From Catajapyx aquilonaris (Eukaryota): a stretch of 62,480 bases of DNA. The translations under genes were made by a program, and so were the position numbers. Every line of letters begins with the position of its first letter. The first letter of the stretch is position 1. Shown in pieces: positions 17,733-29,834 of this stretch. The stretch is taken from positions 62,001-124,480 of the forward strand of contig JYFJ02000538.1 in the NCBI GenBank assembly GCA_000934665.2. Direction: 5' to 3'. The notes beneath the pieces are model-generated. The model had not been told where the DNA came from. It saw nothing but the letters and a program-made list of their open reading frames with translations, and searched no databases.

Positions 17733-20700
17733 TCAGGCCACGTGCTCTGGATTCTTTCTGAGAATGACGAAACCCTCCATGATTGGAGAAAGTGGTATAT
17801 ATTCCTCGGTTGCCAACTCAGCTCTTTCACCGTATGCCAGCAGCACAGGGGTTGTGTATGTCTGGAACCCGGTAATGGTCTTTGGCTTCCCTGCTTGCCC
17901 AACCACATCCACAGCCTGAAAAGGCAGGTAACATTGGCAGAACAACACTGCAATACGTTCATGAACCCATACTGTACTCACCTGTCCAACACGAACAGAC
18001 ACTGGTTGCGGTGTCAGATTCTCATCAAAGGTGACAAGCATGCGGGGTTGCATGGCTGCTGCCAACATGTAGAGTAGATAATGAGATCGACCCAGAATAA
18101 CTGGAAGAAGACGAAGAACATATTATGCAGGTTGCCGTGAGTAAAAATTACACCTACTGCATGAAATTGACAACAATTATTCCTTTGTGATTCAAAACTA
18201 CACCAAACCACTAATTCTGCTTACTGTTTTTGACATCAAGAAAGGCGACGAGAGTGGCTAGCAACCCTGCAACAGCCACAGGTGACATTAGTTGACGATC
18301 AGAGTGGAAGGGGCAGAGGGTAAGCGTCCCTTTTCCCAGATGGGTAAGCCCTTGGGCTACTCGGACAAGGAAAAGATTGTTGGCATCCTTAGCATGATAC
18401 TGGGCCAACTGTCGGAGCATGGCAGCCAGGCGAGCATTGTTAGTGCCAGCAGAAACCAGGCCCATGGCAAATATGGCGTTGTGGGCCACCTCAGGGTCTG
18501 AGTCGTGAGAAAACTTGCTCAGGGCATCTAGAATGTTCAGCTTAGGGTTGGAGACAGACAAGAGTCCCAAAGCAAGTGGGACAGCCCTGCGAATCACAGG
18601 CTCACAGTAGCGGAGCTGCAGAAAAGGGGATTAACTTCAACTTTCTTCTCAAAATAGAGCTGGATTCTGAAAGAATTTCATTGACTTTCTGACTCACCAG
18701 GTGTCCAAATGTCCTGAAGGCCATCTCAGCGCCTATGTCCTCACCCATGGCAATCAAAGCAATCCCCAGCACTGCTATAGCCTGCTGAGAAGACAGGTCT
18801 GGGTTCTCATCAGACTTCTTTTCCTTTTCACCAGCATCCTTCTTGTCCTTCTTGTCCTCCTTCTTCTCATCCTTTGAACAGAAAAACCATGCATACCCCA
18901 ACATCCAATACGTCTTAATAAATTTATATTACCTTCCTATCTTTGTTCCCTTTCTCGGGTGGTTCATAATGTTCACTGCAGATGTGTAGGAGATGTTGCA
19001 CCTTCAAAACATTACCAGTGCCAGCATAGGCGCACACTTCAACCATAGTGCAAGCCATAGATCGGAATGGCTCAGGCACCACTTCCAGGGCAGCCATAAC
19101 AGTCTCGATAGCATCCTGTTTGCCTAGATAGCACAAACCCAACCCAAGAGGCAAGAAACGTGCATAGGTGTCTTTCAAGTCAGCTTCAGATCGTTCCATC
19201 AACATCTGCAGCACAGCAGAGGTAACGCTCCCACGGCAGGAACCAACAGAGATCATTCCACATGCCAGGGAAGCCATCCCCATCACCTCCATGGTGGACT
19301 TGGGATCAGATAAAACTGGAATCAGGAGTTTGAGAAGGTCTTCTCGATCGGATCCAGCATAAGCCAGTCCCAAGCCAACTATTGATCCAATTCGCATTGT
19401 GTTGGTCTCATGAAGGATGTAATCAGAGAGCAGTGCCTTGGCAGGATCACATTCATTGCGCACCCCACAATTGACAATCCCGCAAGCCAGGAGGGCACCA
19501 GCCTTGATATGATCTTCAGACGAATACAGGTATTTGTCAATCTGAGTCAGACCACCATCCACATCCCACAACAATATCAGACCCAAGGAAGCTGTTGCAC
19601 TCAGCATACCTGAAAATTTGCCACATGTCAGAGTCAATTTCAGGGTTGGATCACACATGGAGAAAATTTTCGTTCAACCTCTGCTACGCTAATAAACCAC
19701 ATAACTGCATTTTGCAGGACGAGTGGGTGTAATTTTCGTGCTAGTTACTGCTAAGTTAGCAGTAACTAGCAGTGGGACGAAAGTTCCACCCAGTATTGCT
19801 AAAAATGAAACTGAATCCCAGCAGCAACTAAATCAGCCTGACTGCTATTATTGCTACTGCTGGTACTGGTGTATCAGGCTGACCAATAAAATCAGTTACC
19901 GTGTTCTTTGTTTTTGTAGAGCCACTTGTTCCCATCTTCCATGAGGAGCTTGTCCTTTCCAAATGCAGCGTTGACAAATCCATTGACAAAGCTGGCGGCA
20001 AGATTCTGGCGAGCTGAATCCACCTGCCCCCCTCCAAATGCAGGGCGTGTGTTTTCCAGATGGGATTTGTACACATCTTCTGGAGTCTTTGGCTCCATTA
20101 TGTCCAACTGCACAACATAAAAATATTAATCACTAAGATGCAATCCAAATCAACTGTTATGACTCATAACACTGATAGATGACATTTTGAAAGCACCGAA
20201 AAATATCAGCCAAGTTGAAAGTACAAGGGCGATTTAAATACATTACCAAACTCCCCTGGGTTTACACCCCCTCCCAGTTAGCGAGTTATTTCTCCGTAAC
20301 TCGTACAAAACGTATGGATCAGTGAGAACCTCAGCGTAAAAACGCGCGTTAACATGTAAGAAATGAAACACAAGTGCCAATAGTTTGATTAGGTTCATAA
20401 AAGTCCAAGGGGAAACCACTCCTCCCGAGAGTCCAGAAGAAACGGCGCTACCAATGGGCACGGAACCATCTGAGCTGGACATTCAATGACAGGAAGGTGA
20501 TTTGGTCTGGCGAATAACCATTTGACGTGCTGTATAGAAACATCAGTCGCAGAGTAATTCGGCAGAAGGGTGAAGGACTCCGCAATGACTTGCGAACTGG
20601 GGGGTGGTTTCCCCTTTGACTTGTACGACGTAAACCCATGTCCTTCAGCCTCTGCATGGTTATTTTTGCCGAAAATACACGCCCCAGGCATTCCTGCCAG

Positions 20701-23368
20701 AATGCTGCAGCCTCAGCAAAAGTCCCTGGTCTGTTTTTCCTGACAATCCCGCACAGCATATGGTCTTCTCATGCTGTTGTCGACTCTAGTGGCCCCGAAC
20801 TTTTCTTCCGCTCTGGTGGTGTAATCCTGCTTTAGGAACATGCATACTGTAGACTCATGAACCAAACAGTTCCCGGCCTGTCTGCCAAAGAGGAACACCA
20901 TCCAGAAGCTTTTTGATGATCTCCCTTAGTGCAACAGGCAACCCTCTTCTCATTATGTTTCTTCGCTGTGATGAGTTGTGGGTGGTGGTTTCTCCTGCCT
21001 CTTGTAGCTAAGATGGGCTCAGAATCATGGGAGTTACATTTGCTTACAACGACAAATGGACACACAGCACTGATACCATGTGACGGGTGTGTGCGTGTAA
21101 TATCACTTCCCTTGTGTATTGGGTGGCCTATCATATTCGTGTATGAACCGAATCAAACCATTGGCACATGTGTTCCATTTCTTACATGTTAATCCATGTT
21201 TTTACACAGACGTTATCACTGACCCGTACGGTTCGTACGAGTTACACCGCAAAAACTCGCGAACTGGGGATGCGCGTGTACCCAGAGATTTGGGTAAGGT
21301 AAATGCATTTCGACATGATTCCTAATTAATTCAGGATTTGCAAGAAACATAAGTCTTTGGATGACTCTCATAAATCCTGCACCATCTGCAGTTGCTTAAG
21401 TAACTATAATTATAATAATTAGCAGGTACACTGACCTCTCGACCCAAGTTCAAGAAGTGCTGGTTCAGCTGAGTATTGGACATGATCTCCTTCAGGTCCT
21501 CACTGTCATCCTCACCATCAGCCAACTGCAGCACAATCTGTTGCCTGCCCAGCATAAATGCAAGCTGCTTCTGCATCAACCTGAAGTACAAAAGAAAGTC
21601 ACAATAACGATATCCCCATGCAACAACGTGAATAATTTTTCATGAGAACCAAACATTCAAAATACACACATGTCAGTGCAACTTCCAAATATTTCATGGA
21701 TGGTCTTAGGATTGTTGAGATGCAGGGCCAATCTTAGAGCCTGTGGGTGCTGCCCAAATCTCACAAAAATGCTGAGGGCAGTCTTCAGCAGAGTGGTGTT
21801 TTCTGGGTCGGGCACATATGGCACGCAACTAGTGAGATACAGACAGACCCGCTGGTAAGCACTCTCATCCACGTAACGCTCCAGCAGGTCCAAGCGCTCA
21901 ATCTCCATCAGCAGGTCACAAGCCTCAGCCTCTGCATTGTGGGCCATGTTGTGTGGAACAATCTCTTGGGCTAGCTTGACCAGCCGCTCCCTGGCTTCGG
22001 TGTTGGAAGAATCAGTCTCTGCCCATTCCTGTGCTGCTTCACCTGCCAGGTGGCGGACATATTCATGTCCCCAGTCTCCAACTTCCCCCAGCTGACCCAA
22101 GAGGCGGTACTTGAGGCATTCACGGGCCTCAGACATGGTCATGGCCAAGACAGAAATAATATCTGCGCAGTATTTCTTTGTGGGAATGTCGGTTATACGT
22201 TCATAGCAGGCCTTAATGGTGTCATAATGAGGGCGAAGAAATTTCAAAGGTTTGGGCACGGAGGTCATAGATGTGGTGGAGGCACGAATCTGATTGCGGA
22301 GTGCCTCTAGGGTGGCCATGTACAGACTTGTGTCATCCTCCTGGTGGGAGAGACAAATAAATTATGACATTTGCGCTTTAACAATTTTTACACACATACA
22401 ATTTTTGTCTGTAATGCTTTGTAATTTTTCACATGCAGCAAACTCATAACAATTCAGAAGAAAGCATTGTAGAGAAAAATGTGGACAATTTTACAGACAT
22501 AATCTCCTTTACTGTCAGAACCATTTGGGTGCAATGAAACATGCACTGTACTCCCGATATTACCAGTGCTAATTAATGCGAGTGTGTGCCCGGATGATAG
22601 GAAAACATGGATAATACGAAAGTGGTCCTAGATACTGTAAAAATGAGCTATTCACAGGTTTTTAAACAGACAACTGTACATATTGTATGCTGATTTAAAT
22701 AAGGTTTAATCAAAATAACAAAACACGCCCTAGATTTTTAATTCGTCTTCCGGAAAAAGTCTGCTTTGTATTTCTTTGTTTGAGACATATTGGCATTTTT
22801 CGCACTTTTTCCCCGAATGCATGGATAATCCACACGGGATAATCGGGTGTACTGTGTAATACAAATTTAGATGCTTTGTGATGATACTACTGATTGAAAC
22901 TATTCACTCCAATTTCTGCTGACTCAGACTGGCCCTCCCTACACAGAACATGCCCATTATGGCCTGCATATTCAAATGCAACTTAACCGAGGTTCATGTG
23001 CACCAAACTTTAATCACATGGCCATTGCAGTGACTTAATTGTAATTAATTCCATCCCTGATCAATACTCACCGAGAGTCTCTCCACAAGCATTTTGAGCT
23101 CATCCTGCAGCTGCTTGTCCTCTTCGGACTGCAGAAGATAAAAGAGACACGTTTAGGCTTATTGTATACCGATGCATGTGGCAGGCCATCGACACTTTGT
23201 CACACACTTTGATTCCTTTCATAGCTTTAAAACTTAACATGCCAATTCCACCAGAGATATTCTGCTCACCAGTTCGGCCTCCTTCTCCTCCTCATTCTTC
23301 TTGTCCTTCTTGTCCTTCTTCTCCTTGGGAGCCGTTGACTCAGCCTTATTCTTCCCGTCCGCCATCAT
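17733..23368 (-). CDS. PSMD2: 26S proteasome non-ATPase regulatory subunit 2 (Rpn1), about 929 aa
   Basis: Exons 23270-23368, 23072-23128, 21670-22340, 21436-21580, 19900-20107, 18933-19609, 18698-18871, 18225-18615 and 17733-18100. Motifs: [75 protein letters not shown]. In the last exon, a 48-nt gtgagt...ttcag segment (about 17933-17980) interrupts VGQ|AVD and is probably an additional short intron, which would give about 913 aa. Confidence 0.97.
19723..19793. repeat. About 70-bp hairpin / mini-MITE in a PSMD2 intron
   Basis: Perfect 16-bp inverted repeat TGCTAGTTACTGCTAA-G-TTAGCAGTAACTAGCA, flanked by TGGGTGTAATTTTCGT / ACGAAAGTTCCACCCA. Confidence 0.8.
20241..21299 (-). mobile_element. 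Internally deleted Tc1-family transposon in a PSMD2 intron
   Basis: TA|CATTACC ... GGTAAGG|TA ends with about 160-bp imperfect TIRs (20241-20400 vs 21140-21299). The minus strand reads [59 protein letters not shown], the Tc1 GRPR-linker/second HTH. No DDE domain is recognisable. Confidence 0.85.
22544..22856. mobile_element. Tigger/pogo-like MITE, copy 1
   Basis: CACTGTACTCCCGAT ... GGATAATCGGGTGTACTGTG termini. Co-linear with the copy at 45931-46247. Confidence 0.8.
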
Positions 23369-23932
23369 GCAATGTAGAGGTTGCCGGAGAAATTTTCTTT
23401 TTCTTTTTTTTCTTCTCCGAACAAAATGCTTGGGACCCGTTCGGTTCGCTGTATGGAACAGTGCGAAGTGACTATTGAAATTTTGATTTTCACCGTGACG
23501 CATCATTTTATAATAGCCCACTGCTTGTGACTCATACTTAGATATACATGAGTTTTGATGATTATAATAGACTTAATGGAGTAAAATATAAACTGTTAAT
23601 TGACTGCTCCCTGGTGAGCATTTACGGTAGTTACGTGCGGGCTTTACAAATAATCCTATGATGCTTGAAAAATGCTTGAAAATACCATTTCAGCATGCGG
23701 GATTCCACAACCTATTTGACTGTAAAATAAAAGTATGATGGGCTTACACTGCTGCAGCTAACAAATATGCAGTGAATCAATGCTGATTAAGGTATAGAAA
23801 TCATTTGTCAAAAATGAGGTGTATATATGATCATCCAGCAGCAAACATTTGGGACAATGGCAATTCACTGAAGATGTTCACCAGCTATTCATTGAATATT
23901 CATGCATAACCGGGGAAGCCAGACATGTTTGA

Positions 23933-24222
23933 CCCTGGAACAGTGATGTGGAGTATTTTAGGACTCCAAAGGAATTAAAATGCATTAAAATGATAATTAC
24001 AATGAACATTTGCCATTTTTTAAAAGTACATGACAAGAAGTGCATGTTTATGTTGAATTAGCGATCATTTTAAGCATTGTTCAAGCTTCAAGGAATGATT
24101 GCACATAGTCAATACATTGAAAAGTATTATATAAAAATTAATAAAAATTAAAATATGGATGGGGTCCTAAAAGACCCCATGTCATGGTTGCCACAACTTC
24201 CAGGCATGTCACGGTTCCAGGG
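23933..24222. mobile_element. piggyBac-like MITE upstream of PSMD2
   Basis: TTGA|CCCTGGAACAGTG ... CACGGTTCCAGGG|TTAA, with subterminal inverted repeats (GGAGTATTTTAGGACTCC / GGGGTCCTAAAAGACCCC). Confidence 0.7.
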
Positions 24223-24755
24223 TTAACGTGGCACTGATTGTTGTTATCCCAATAATTGGTTGTTAATTTTTACACTTATTGCTGGACTAGTTATAGCCAA
24301 TACTAACTTCTTCCCTTGCATTAGGGACTTGTCGGTGGACCACACTGCACTGCACTGCACAGAAAGGTAGCCTATAACTTACAAGTCATATCAATTGCCT
24401 TTATTGCATTTCACTCTGACAATAGTATGCTCACAGCCTATACTTGTTGCAGAAAATGTCACTTTAGTTACCCATATTTTGTTTTGTCATCAGTCATGAA
24501 TCCTGTTACCCTTCACCTAACTTGGAACTATTCCCCACATTACCGGGGCATTCCATCACCTTGTGTAAGGCATGCTTGTTCCAGTTCTGAACCATGGAAA
24601 TTCAATGATTCCTTACGGAAGACAATACCGTATAAAACCACCATGAGGCTCATGTTCCAAGACTCACCTAACGCACTGTGCACATGATAATATATTGCAG
24701 AGATCAATACTTCTTTTTGACCTCCTCAGGATTTCTGCCCATGGTGAGTACATGA

Positions 24756-27700
24756 TTATGCTGTAAAACAATAATTGTGGTCTGAAGGTTCAGCATTAAC
24801 ATTCAGTTTGCCTTCCTGACAGACAACTAATTCTTTGAGGACATTCTCTTTTGTATTTGGTTTCTGCATCCCTAAATCACGATGCTTATTCCTTGATTTC
24901 ACTGACTGGTAATGCGTTTTTTTATCTAGATGTGGACTTCTCTGCAGCCTTGCTTTCTTACTTGGGGGTTCCTCATTGGCTTCTCCTAACACAGGGATGT
25001 CTGAAGAAGAACTTGGAAATGCAATGGTCATGAGAGAATCTAGGCCCATCCTGATTTTGAGCAATGCTTCCAGAGGCTGTTCCTTCAAGGAACCAAGAAT
25101 CGCATTCATGTGCGACCTAATAAGGTAGTCCTCCTCTTCTTTCTCTTCCTGCTCGACCAATGGATGTAGATTTCTCTCCACGTCTACCTCGCAATCTGTG
25201 TCCAGGAAAGTAGAAAGCCATTTTTCTTTCTGTTGATGAAGACTCTTCCTTATGTTGTATATGGTCTTCTTTTTTATAATGTTCTTGACATTACGTATTC
25301 CCCTTTGGCAAGAAATTTTCTCTCTCATCTCATTCAGAATCCTCGTCAATGGCACACCTTGGTGAATTTTACCTGTAGAGGAAAATTAACAATAGATATT
25401 GGTGCGAATTGATGGATTATCACCTCTTGTGTGCATTAAAACTGCACTCTCTATTATTCCACATTAGGTTCTGGGCTATCTAATACGTTCTCTTTGACAA
25501 AAGGGCTAATCGCCCATGGCGAAATAAAATTATTGTTATTATTAATACCTTCTCTTGGATTTTTTAAATGCCCACACAAAGCATGAATAAATAAAGTGAA
25601 TGCTTTTAATATTTACTAATTAAGGCTTTTCTCATCCTGGTTGAGCCACATGGCCTGTTAGGACAGTAGAGTCACATATCAAGCATTATTCTTTCCAGTA
25701 TACTTACGAGCTATTTCTATGCGCTCTTGGGCTGACAGTCTCAAGTAGGCGAGGTTATTTTTGTGTCCAACATGTGTGCGATAATATTGCACAATAATTT
25801 TTCCATCTGAAAACTCCTTAATATCCATTGATGCAGGGCAGGTTCCTCCCATTTTGCATGAACCTTGGGACCTGATGCGCCTCTTCCCATGACTGTGACT
25901 TAAATATGCACCTGATCGATGACATGAATAACGGTATTTCTTGAAGTTTTTTTGAACTGCACAGCCTTTCGATTTTGAGAAAGATGCTAGAGATTTTACT
26001 TCCTCCTGGTCCTTCCACTTCTGGAACTCTGTAAAATATAGCAAAAACATCACTGACACTATTGTATAATGCACCTGTGCACAGAGTACCGAACATAAAA
26101 AAAGATCCTTAAAAATCCGGCAACACATTGTACTACCCATTTCTTACCTTCCACTGATGGGAACTCCAACGTATCCATCTCACAAGTCACTTTATGTGAG
26201 AATAAGAGGTGATTCCTTAGATCCACATTGGACGGAACAGGCAAGTTGCACCCATCCAATGGGCATTTAATAGCTGACATTTTACGAGCTGCTGGTGGAA
26301 CCAGATATCGCAAGTTCACATGGTTGCATGGATTATTACCACAATTAAATGGGCAGAGAGAAAGCTTCTTGACAAGATGTGCTGTGTTGCCTGGACCTGC
26401 ATTAGCTTCCCCTTCTCCTTCCACACACTCTGGAAAATGGTTTTTTTTTAAATTAAAATTTATTCAAGGCAAATTTTCTGTATATTATTGTTGCATTATG
26501 CTTGACAATCCTTTTTTGTCTGCCATTAATCAATTCATATCCTTTATTATAGATACTACGCATTTGTGTTTTCTGTACATCTGCTATCTCTCTCACAGCG
26601 CATGCTATATTCTTATGTGATTTGTCAAGTTTTATTCCACACTCTAACTACCTTACCGCTGGCTGGTGGTAATGATGATACTGGATTTGTGCTCATATTT
26701 GGTAGTGATTCCTTCACCATCTTGTGCTTCTCATGTATGTGCATGTTTAAGGTCTTGCGATAGCCATATATCTTCCCACAAACAGGGCATGTCCATCTGG
26801 CAGAGGGTACAGCTTTTCCTACGCTGGTAGCAATATTCCCCTCTCCCCCTAGAAGCTCTGTGAAAAAGCTTAAATTGTCCATTTGGCCCATGCCCATACT
26901 TGGTGGCACTTCCCCTATGACCCTGTGCTTCATAGCCACATGCTTGTTTAAGGCTTTCTTACAGCCATAATTCCTCCCACAAACAGAGCATGTCATAAGG
27001 ACAGGAGGTGCAGGTTCATTCCTGTGGGTTTCACTCTTCTCTCTTTCGAGATCCTCTGGAGGGGAAAAAATTAAATTAATATCATGAGATGTTCAAATAA
27101 TAAATTAGGCCTACCCTATGACCCATGCTTACTTGTTGGTGGGGTTGGTTGTGAATGGACATTTAGCATACTTCTTGCTGGTAGTATCGGTCTAAACTGT
27201 GGGGTGCTTGCCATTTTCACTGCTTTGACCATCAACTTGTGTGACGTAGACATGTAGTGGCTGGTTAAAGTGTTTGGACCATTAAAAGTCTTATCGCAAA
27301 TGTCACAATTGTAAGTATTTTTCGCACCCAGTGTTGCATTGCCAGTGCTGGGTACAACTGGATTTGCCACCATCAAAACTGCTGGAAAAGCTACCCGAAA
27401 AATGCATCAAATTAAACTTTTCTATAATCAGCCTGCAATCCATGCTCTTACATTGAAGCACAGGAACAATCGCCAGCAGTTGGTCGGCTCCCACTTGTTG
27501 AGGCGTCTCCAGCTCTATCCCATGAACTTTGGTCAGGTGATAGCTTCGGCTGTGGTTAGAACAAAACATCCTTTTGCATATCGGGCAGCAGAACTGCTCC
27601 TTAGGTCTTGGTAACTTGCTAGAATCATCTTTCCCCTCTCCGTCTGCAGGAAGAATAACAACCTATCTAACTACCTCAATGCTGCAAGACACATGCAGTT

Positions 27701-27784
27701 CTTCTACTCACCAGGACGCTGCCCTGGTTCTGTTTCTGCCTCTAGAGTCACCTCCACAGCTACCTCTTGCTCTATTGCTTCCAT
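24756..27784 (-). CDS. Multi-C2H2 zinc-finger protein with a MULE-transposase-type WRKY/GCM1-like DNA-binding domain (about 713 aa)
   Basis: Exons 27712-27784, 27452-27643, 27133-27390, 26657-27055, 26148-26429, 25708-26028 and 24756-25372 are all GT-AG, all phase 1 and open. Five C2H2-type fingers are followed by F-x-x-WK..EE, YSCHRSG...SCKMGGTCPA...YRTHVGH. Confidence 0.85.
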
Positions 27785-28340
27785 AATGAGTGCGGTAGCA
27801 GAAGAAACTAGCAGTGCATGGTTGTGCCTGGTTTAAACTCTGGTTTAAACTCTTGAACAGTTGAACTTGAATGCACCAGGGCGCCCTCACGTTTGGTGGT
27901 TAATTACTGTCAGAGATTGCAGGAATTATGTGAAACTGAGCCGTGTATACAGTACTGACAAGTCATGAAAACAAATTGAACATGCTGTCACATACTACTT
28001 GCATGCAGGTACTTCATTGAAGTCAACCTGTCCTCTCATTTTCGCCGTATATCGCCCGTACTTAAACTACCAGCCGGCAGATGGAGTCGCTGTTCCACAT
28101 TTATTCTTATGGCGCCTTTTTTTTATTGGAGCGCCGCAGTCATCGGCGGAGAGAGGGAGAAGTATCGGAGGGAGCCTGAACGACAGGTCCTAGTCTCTCT
28201 ACCGCTCTCTACCAAATGTCTCTACTCTCTCTCCCCAAACCCGCACCACTCTTGCCCGCACTGCCTTCCCAGCTGCTCCTCGTGTTCCCCACTCCTGTGC
28301 CCTTTTCCGCCACTTTCTGCCTTTCCAGAGCAGCCTAACC

Positions 28341-28625
28341 ATGGCCCAGGCGGCAGCGGCAGTGGTGAAGAAGACCCGAGGCCGAAACTTCAGGGCAAAG
28401 AAGCTGTGGCCAACCATATGAAATGAGAGGCGGAGAAGAGGTTGGAAGTAGAATTGAATTCATCATCAACCATCAAGAGGATCTGGAAGCAACTCTGGTT
28501 CGCTTATGAAAGCCTGAAGAAGAAGGCTAAGAAGCTGGCCACTGTAGTAGATAAGCAGAAGATGTATAAAACTGGTGGCGGTGCCTTCTGCAAGGCCACC
28601 TGCAGTGTAGGGGGGGTCCGGACCT
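28341..28625 (+). pseudogene. Decayed Myb/SANT-like (PIF/Harbinger DNA-binding ORF, MSANTD-like) fragment
   Basis: MAQAAAAVVKKTRGRNF, then a frameshift into KEAVANHMK*EAEKRLEVELNSSSTIKRIWKQLWFAYESLKKKAKK...KMYKTGGG. RxxNF and KTGGG are typical of this family. Confidence 0.7.
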
Positions 28626-29834
28626 TCAGTGACCTCGGAAAGGTAAATCCTGGACCTTCTGGACCTTGTTATAAACTAGTTGAATAACCCTGCCTTAATA
28701 ATATTTGATGAAGATACGACTCGTAAATACTGTAGACAGTTTCTAGCACCTTCTGTGCCCATTTCAATTGCCCCTCCTCCCCCCAAATCAACTTTCAACT
28801 TTCAAGCCCATGTTTTCACTACTGTGATTTTTACATACCTCTCTCTCCCCCCNCCCCCCCCCCCGTGCCCTTCCCCTTTTTATTTAATATAATGAAGGGT
28901 AATTTCCTGTAAAGGTTTGTCATTGTACACTGCAAAATACATGCTGGAAGAGATCCCTTCCCTTTCCTCACACCTTTTCCCCTCCATCCCCGATTTTTAA
29001 ATTTCTGGAAATGGGGTTACAAAATCTCGTGTTGCGCATCTTGAGTGGTAACTTTGCATATGCCATTGGTGTTAAATACATGTCATTGACCACTTATGAT
29101 TAATTGGGAAACGTCTTGAGGCTGTTGATGTTACAATACTTTTTAATGCGTGGCCTCACTGTGCTTCTTTTAAAGTACTGTAACCACTATAAGCAGAATT
29201 ATGAGTGAAAATATAAATGCCCATAATTTTGTTTGATGATTGCAGGAAGAAATTCACTTGTGAAGTTGTGATAACATAACTTCGGTCATGCTTTTGTAGT
29301 AAGTGTAAATTAGTGCATTTTGTTGTATGTTTTTTTCCTGTAAATTCACAATAAATTAAATGGCAGGTTCGAAAAGGCATTTAATGATATATACAAGATC
29401 TTATTCTGTGTTGTTATGATTACAAGAACAATGAGAAGTCATTTTTTTTCTTCTTTTCAGTGACAACTCGTGCATGCTCAGTGATAAATTACACAAATAT
29501 AAAATGTTATGTGCAGCCCAAAAGTCAGCTTGATGGTCATTGCTTCTGCAAATATGGATTTGTGATTTCTTTTGGCATGCTTGCTGTGCTATGTAGGTAA
29601 TAGCCATATTGCAGCATTACCTGGCTTGAATAAACTTTAAAAGTAGTAATACCGCACTGGTTATGCAAAGATAAGTTTCAATATGCAATATCTTCGGTGA
29701 GTAATGGTCCATCTGATTCCCATCATTGAAAATATGTACACAAATGCACAAGATAATTAAAAATAATGGTAGCTTACAGTTTTTTTCATTGTAAGTTTAT
29801 GACTAGGTGACTTAGGTGAAGTCAATACCACCAT

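Follow-up and report, generated by a model that had tools for sequence, protein, structure and literature searches.

A single-copy, spliced gene related to Mutator transposases in Catajapyx aquilonaris and its C-terminal match to the HCF-1-binding consensus

The window analysed here, a stretch of 62,480 nucleotides from Catajapyx aquilonaris, carries a minus-strand gene with zinc fingers, remains of a Mutator-like (MULE) transposase and the tetrapeptide DHNY close to its stop codon. The first-pass annotation had read it as a domesticated transposase acting as a host transcription factor or transposon repressor through HCF-1. The locus raises the questions of whether it is a gene or a transposon, what became of the catalytic core, and whether the terminal motif was gained with a host function or came with the transposase.

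Gene structure, transcription and copy number

The gene (27784..24756, minus strand) consists of seven exons with 713 codons and one terminal stop (Table 1). All six introns (61-335 nt) have GT-AG borders and lie in phase 1, so that the intact frame described in the first-pass annotation was recovered throughout; the joint of intron 4 is backed by a contig, and the remaining five introns are predicted. The five C2H2-type fingers that had been named are present as pattern matches starting at residues 43, 117, 197, 264 and 363. Pfam backs finger 2 (zf-C2H2_jaz, 31 bits at a cut-off of 22.6; zf-met, 27.6 at a cut-off of 21.2) and the finger pair of exon 4 (zf-C2H2_4, 30.3 at a cut-off of 27) only, fingers 1 and 5 being pattern matches without Pfam support. 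At the DNA level, the first half of exon 4 aligns with the second (score 61 versus a shuffle maximum of 31). For an origin of exons 1-3 and 5 from one duplicated module the DNA gave no support, relatedness being confined to these two halves. No counterpart of the acidic leader of exon 1 was found in the transposon relatives. The DDE core and the SWIM finger had been reported as unrecognisable; profile search of the protein detected neither, and tblastn of the window gave best E-values of 0.99-3. Pfam search of the ORFs spanning exons 2-7 gave no match to a THAP domain.

Table 1. Positions of the exons and other features of the gene within the window
Feature	Position	Strand	Remarks
Exon 1	27712..27784	-	ATG at 27784; acidic leader, aa 1-24; predicted splice, without contig joint
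Exon 2	27452..27643	-	C2H2-pattern finger 1; run X1 contig on 27490-27644
Exon 3	27133..27390	-	Finger 2, jaz/matrin-type spacing
Exon 4	26657..27055	-	Fingers 3 and 4, internal tandem duplication; contig and intron-4 joint
Exon 5	26148..26429	-	Finger 5, the finger preceding the WRKY-like domain in parent MULEs
Exon 6	25708..26028	-	WRKY-GCM1/FAR1-type CCHH zinc domain, predicted DNA-binding; contig 25803-26023
Exon 7	24756..25372	-	HTH-like helical module; stub preceding the deleted core; hairpin of helices; disordered tail; contig 24735-25222
Linker, aa 552-590, including acidic patch	25128..25244	-	Pre-catalytic stretch of parent; DDE/SWIM deletion comes after
Basic NLS-like patch PPSKKARL, aa 644-651	24945..24968	-	Aligns with transposase EPxNKK motif; putative NLS
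DHNY, aa 706-709, [D/E]HxY consensus	24771..24782	-	Four residues before stop; predicted disordered tail
3' UTR	24400..24755	-	Contig cover 24450-24737; AATAAA at 24400-24405 by signal scan

One public run (X1) provided five contigs at the locus, and all five fall on exons (2, 4-5, 6 and 7) or on the 3' UTR, with a depth of 2-7; exons 1 and 3 are without contig cover. One contig omits exactly positions 26430-26656, which correspond to the predicted intron 4. At low depth, with one of six joints covered and the kind of run unrecorded, the contigs look like spliced RNA.

The gene was found once at the DNA level in the draft assembly (20,583 contigs), where only matches of 44-59 bp to a repeat in intron 6 occurred elsewhere. 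The best inverted match of the flanks scored 24, compared to a shuffle mean of 25.6, whereas two TIR-bearing relatives used as controls scored 136 and 122, and no match to the TIR of the parent element L067 was found around the gene. Both the expected single copy and the absence of TIRs noted at first sight were hence reproduced. Single copy, immobility, an intact ORF and a spliced transcript (one run, one joint), as expected of a domesticated gene, were all observed here, and the DDE domain, the TIRs and the 8-11-bp TSD that mark an autonomous MULE are absent.

Descent from a MULE transposase and loss of the catalytic core

With exon 6 as query, 22 other places in the genome were matched, many of them MULE transposases with C2H2 fingers, DDE core and SWIM. 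Closest to the window gene among the relatives with a catalytic core is L067, which is flanked by TIRs of 86 bp and a perfect 9-bp TSD and has a Pfam MULE match (E 5.9e-12), the D, D, CxxH and E motifs and the tail DHGYL-stop; it is frameshifted, and its 5' exons are missing. In the closest paralogue, L027 (53% identity over 43 aa in exon 5), the core is gone by a different deletion, SWIM is retained and the tail is frameshifted. A further copy, L028, is core-less and 80-88% identical to the TIR-bearing copy L029. Introns 5 and 6 of the window gene have position and phase in common with L027 and L028. On the grounds of homology and of introns shared with TIR- and TSD-bearing MULEs, the gene is classified as MULE-derived, as had been proposed.

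The window protein can be aligned to L067 over the helical module and for about 40 further residues (p = 0.002, 1000 shuffles). The alignment picks up again at the post-SWIM helices, with 36 residues in the window protein versus 434 in L067 between the same landmarks. Judged from this alignment, DDE and SWIM are removed in frame, a loss of about 400 residues relative to L067. A reading of the linker as a decayed remnant of SWIM was rejected (p = 0.94); its match is to the flank ahead of the catalytic domain. The acidic patch and the NLS-like patch to which the first-pass annotation had drawn attention are both there, but both can be aligned to the parent transposase and are inherited from it, as are introns 5 and 6.

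Exon 6 gave a weak Pfam match to FAR1 (E 0.0033, below the cut-off). Among 75 sequences the zinc ligands C36, C64 and H86 are invariant, and H89 is present in at least 90%. The model built from these 75 sequences (pLDDT 85.6) contains four strands. Its best fold was yeast Aft2 on DNA (Z 6.5, rmsd 3.9, 77 aligned), followed by AtWRKY1 (Z 6.4, rmsd 2.9, 58 aligned), where Z values of 6.4-6.5 lie in the range that the fold-comparison tool calls common. Foldseek against the PDB returned nothing at E <=0.001, with WRKY domains among the weak rows. The four-strand sheet with CCHH ligands, together with Z values that are modest and agree with the sequence evidence, indicates that exon 6 encodes a predicted domain of the WRKY-GCM1 superfamily. 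For WRKY-GCM1 domains and Aft2, an origin from MULEs is described in PMC1702500. The model of exon 7 has confident helices at the start and in the middle and a tail of low confidence from about residue 120; the predicted disorder of this tail fits the need of a short linear motif.

No orthologue was found in protein searches, in which the best full-length relatives reached at most 47%; domestication is therefore likely and short of proven. Compared to paralogues, pN/pS was 0.40-0.67, with dS at or near saturation and the active-transposon phase included. For the finger duplicates of exon 4, pN was 0.37 and pS 0.30 (ratio about 1.2) at only 30 synonymous sites, and all zinc ligands were retained. 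Both differences seen in the X1 contig are non-synonymous (H282R, E290K). In neutral simulations, an ORF of this length was intact in 0.6% of cases at 0.05 substitutions per site (broken in 99%).

These data were also weighed against the assumption that the locus is the remnant of a non-autonomous MULE, not yet broken and transcribed by chance, that no host selection keeps and whose motifs are transposon leftovers. Such a relic would be consistent with the inheritance of all cited motifs, the finger duplicates without a selection signal, the residue-altering nature of the observed variants and the failure to find an orthologue, and core-less copies readily arise as plain derivatives in this genome (L028; L027 with its frameshifted tail). 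However, the frame of 713 codons and all six pairs of splice sites have stayed intact although TIR and TSD are gone and no DNA-level sibling was found; neutral decay permits such intactness only to about 0.02-0.05 substitutions per site, and the TIR-bearing relatives examined are frameshifted. A mere relic is for these reasons considered distinctly unlikely.

Two of the related copies deserve separate mention. The L028 copy (L028:3980-5650, on G000:C10) bears SWIM, lacks the core, has an apparently open three-exon frame and ends in DHQY; matching TIRs were not found, unlike in L029, and the copy is possibly a younger domestication. At L027:197-1930 (G000:C7895), the finger exon overlaps the end of a same-strand frame that was labelled F-box/LRR-like by eye, and C12475 carries a related copy.

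The terminal DHxY motif

In PMC13631171 the HCF-1-binding consensus (HBM) is given as [D/E]HxY with x free. At the composition of the window protein, [DE]HxY is expected 0.07 times anywhere, so that the motif alone is weak and its conservation constitutes the evidence. Of 16 contigs of a second MULE family of the genome (family A), 13 have DHxY as their coding end, directly at the stop or no more than a few codons ahead of it; 12 of these were counted by pattern and C2341 by eye, and the other three contigs are without that segment in the DNA examined. Across the 12 pattern-scored contigs, both codons are in use for each of D, H and Y without amino-acid change, x is Q, T, A or V, and the adjacent N, S and A are likewise conserved. 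A full DDE segment is present on three of the DHxY-ending contigs. Two more subfamilies end in DHAYI and DHQY and bring the number beyond family A, including L067, to three. None of the DHxY-ending transposon copies in the genome is an intact autonomous element. Exon 7 has only six near-invariant columns, of which D, H and Y make up three.

By these comparisons, DHxY is inherited from the transposase and was not gained at domestication. Since the motif is already found in parent transposases, it is itself no sign of domestication. The HCF-1-type motif of the first reading thus stands as a terminal element that is conserved family-wide and lies in a predicted disordered region, but not as a mark of a host gene.

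Among 150 database relatives, [DE]HxY falls within the final 40 residues of nine, whereas 500 shuffles gave 0.81 on average and at most 5; reordered control motifs occurred 0-3 times in the same set. Divided by class, the terminal motif was found in eight of 110 core-less proteins and in one of six that have DDE alone; none of 16 proteins with an incomplete core and none of 18 with DDE and SWIM (many of which appear truncated) had it. A second homologue search, biased by being seeded with motif-bearing tails, gave a terminal HBM in 9 of 28 proteins, including the MULE-domain proteins P0299 (cockroach), P0302 and P0305. Core-less homologues keep the motif in Ixodes (8/8 members, three species), Dermacentor (4/4, three species) and Schistocerca (6/6, six species). 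The terminal motif was found in krill, crab and cockroach gene models too; core-less neighbours from cricket (0/4) and louse (0/2) are without it.

A quick tree (95 rows, 149 columns) was restricted to proteins of at least 300 aa with 80% coverage; its deep branches are weak, and the DDE labels assigned by regex missed several core-bearing proteins. The window gene paired with L027 (97) and L028 with a DDE copy (100); the locust core-less gene grouped with locust DDE proteins (92), and the tick genes formed a group of their own (99). A 27-row group containing all 12 HBM rows had an SH-aLRT of only 80. With the reservation of weak deep branches, the tree suggests several independent losses of the core with the motif retained.

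In all cases the motif lies at most about 10 residues from the C-terminus, and the residues past Y vary in number and kind. The terminal position, compared to internal motifs in THAP proteins (PMC11811203, PMC13631171), would also suit a domesticated regulator in which DHxY serves, for instance, another Kelch-type receptor, as a C-terminal degron, or transposase self-association; moreover, an HBM does not ensure HCF-1 binding, as exemplified by THAP5 (PMC13631171). The conserved positions are, however, exactly D/E, H and Y with free x, as in the published consensus, and the variable residues after Y are unlike an end-anchored degron. A role other than HCF binding is accordingly judged quite improbable.

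In sister MULE subfamilies, a PHD finger or an Ulp1 (C48) protease is found at the tail in the position of DHxY (L097:901-1200, L109:2809-3108, L106:205-654). In L028 (L028:5570-5731, G000:C10) and other family-A copies, the stop codon is centred in a long palindrome (folding z -14.9), the 3' flank being an inverted copy of the coding tail that could give a hairpin RNA. A stop-codon hairpin of this kind is absent from the window gene (z -0.9) and from L067.

Proposed function and relation to known systems

The window gene is best explained as a single-copy, spliced MULE-derived gene that lost its core in frame and probably encodes a DNA-binding regulator recruiting HCF-1 by its inherited tail. 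Finger 5, the WRKY/GCM1-type domain and the helical module, which may have gripped the TIRs in the parent, would retain DNA binding, with the specificity extended or altered by the four fingers upstream. The basic patch is predicted to direct nuclear import, and DHNY in the disordered tail would dock in the Kelch propeller of HCF. HCF could then recruit TFIID and chromatin co-factors, with nearby promoters being activated more likely than silenced. For THAP1, DHNY is described as essential for activation (PMC11811203), and Hcfc1 as a bridge between HBM factors and TFIID at CpG-island promoters (bioRxiv 10.64898/2025.12.28.696747). HBM-dependent recruitment of HCF is tied mostly to activation in these sources (PMC11811203; bioRxiv 10.64898/2025.12.28.696747), which makes activation likelier than repression here.

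An HCF Kelch gene is present in the genome. Prediction of a complex between a mayfly HCF Kelch domain (P0178, aa 1-352) and the last 40 residues of the window protein gave scores of 0.01 and 0.00, calculated without alignments and with a tool unproven on peptides, and these scores are taken neither for nor against docking. The HCF gene itself (L037; G000:C951:9137-10150) has two Kelch-coding stretches in one 364-codon open frame, separated by about 66 extra codons that represent a stop-free intron or an insertion.

The same core-less protein could have been kept by the host as a transposon inhibitor that would act by occupying the TIRs of its parent MULE subfamily or by poisoning the multimers of the transposase, and would also compete for HCF. 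In favour of this, the module predicted to bind TIRs is retained, the genome still contains an element of the parent type whose TIRs are near-perfect and whose TSD is perfect, and several core-less derivatives exist. Against this, the helical module has diverged from that of the parent (pN 0.31-0.33, versus 0.09 between L027 and L067), four upstream fingers are carried, searches for DDE-bearing pieces of the parent subfamily found only two, and HBM-dependent recruitment is activating in the cited HCF-1 papers. Inhibition as the main role is regarded as unlikely.

The window gene is neither a THAP protein nor an autonomous MULE; by analogy, it would work like a transposon-derived transcription factor of the THAP or Aft type. 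Plant FHY3/FAR1 retain the transposase core and SWIM, unlike the window gene, in which both are missing. With FHY3/FAR1 and the animal FHY3-like factors (PMC10027918) it has in common that a MULE-derived regulator carries a FAR1-like DNA-binding domain (Pfam E 0.0033). Core-less regulators derived from MULEs are already known (PMC1702500; PMC10027918). The solo factors with an insert-containing WRKY-GCM1 domain (yeast Rcs1/Aft1, Aft2, Candida Rbf1 and nematode solo versions; PMC1702500) resemble the window gene in a MULE-derived CCHH domain without catalytic core, in single copy and in the lack of ends, and Aft2 on DNA was the best structural match. Unlike the Rcs1/Aft-type factors, the window gene adds five C2H2-pattern fingers, the helical module and a transposase tail ending in DHxY; the available text of PMC1702500 makes no mention of an HCF motif for WRKY-GCM1 factors.

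THAP factors with an HBM (THAP1, 3, 7, 11 and the transposase-like THAP9; PMC13631171, PMC11811203) likewise combine a transposase-type zinc DNA-binding domain with [D/E]HxY, and THAP1 has the identical DHNY (PMC11811203). They differ from the window gene in superfamily (P element versus MULE), in the DNA-binding fold and in the position of the motif, which is internal and beside a coiled coil instead of terminal. Arthropod MULEs bearing N-terminal C2H2 fingers, the Spectre clade among them (PMC6446971), share C2H2 fingers, short TIRs and an 8-11-bp TSD with the parent elements, the TIRs measuring 74-76 bp in Spectre compared to 68-86 bp in the relatives found here; the clade likeness is one of features. 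Unlike these elements, the window gene is without DDE, SWIM, TIR and TSD. HCF is not mentioned in the available text of the MULE survey PMC6446971, and the main texts of the open-licence PMC and bioRxiv literature yielded neither a MULE-HCF link nor an HCF motif in MULEs.

In the literature searched, no precedent was found for transposases whose own tails carry a conserved HCF-1-binding consensus that is kept when the core is lost independently. Should the motif bind HCF, an animal Mutator clade would be tied to a named host co-activator. As the parent transposases already had the hook, one internal deletion would give a ready-made transcription factor, and this would account for the recurrence of the layout in arthropods. 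The route leads from transposase to transcription factor with the effector motif in place, parallel to that of THAP proteins from P elements.

That MULEs insert within or close to genes is described in PMC6446971. A tentative explanation, for which we claim modest probability, is that an arthropod Mutator clade uses a C-terminal HCF-1 hook to anchor its transpososome at active promoters marked by HCF, in place of the PHD finger with which sister subfamilies end; this would provide a mechanism for such insertion. Retroelement integrases offer a parallel, some of them relying on short targeting motifs at the C-terminus. If tethering occurs, these elements would amount to ready-built transcription factors for which one internal deletion suffices for domestication, and this would have happened repeatedly in ticks, locusts, crustaceans and this genome.

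In the surroundings of the gene, positions 28000-28400 of the window have a GC content of 0.56 and a CpG o/e of 0.74, versus 0.35 across the gene, and represent a candidate promoter. A broken plus-strand frame at 28341-28700, ending near KTGGG and accompanied by an X1 contig at 28442-28782, presumably resembles a Harbinger Myb/SANT gene; a Pfam scan of the frame gave no match. A high-copy 80-bp repeat lies at about 28610-28700. In the upstream neighbour, the SH3 domain alone was confirmed, and its label as SKAP received no further support. Between the 3' end of the gene and PSMD2, a MITE-like element with 18-nt inverted ends (23929-24226) is overlain by numerous divergent X1 contigs. Two inverted repeat arms of 144 nt, 80% complementary and 742 nt apart, were located at 20256-21285, below the exon of PSMD2/RPN1 that spans 21657-22361.
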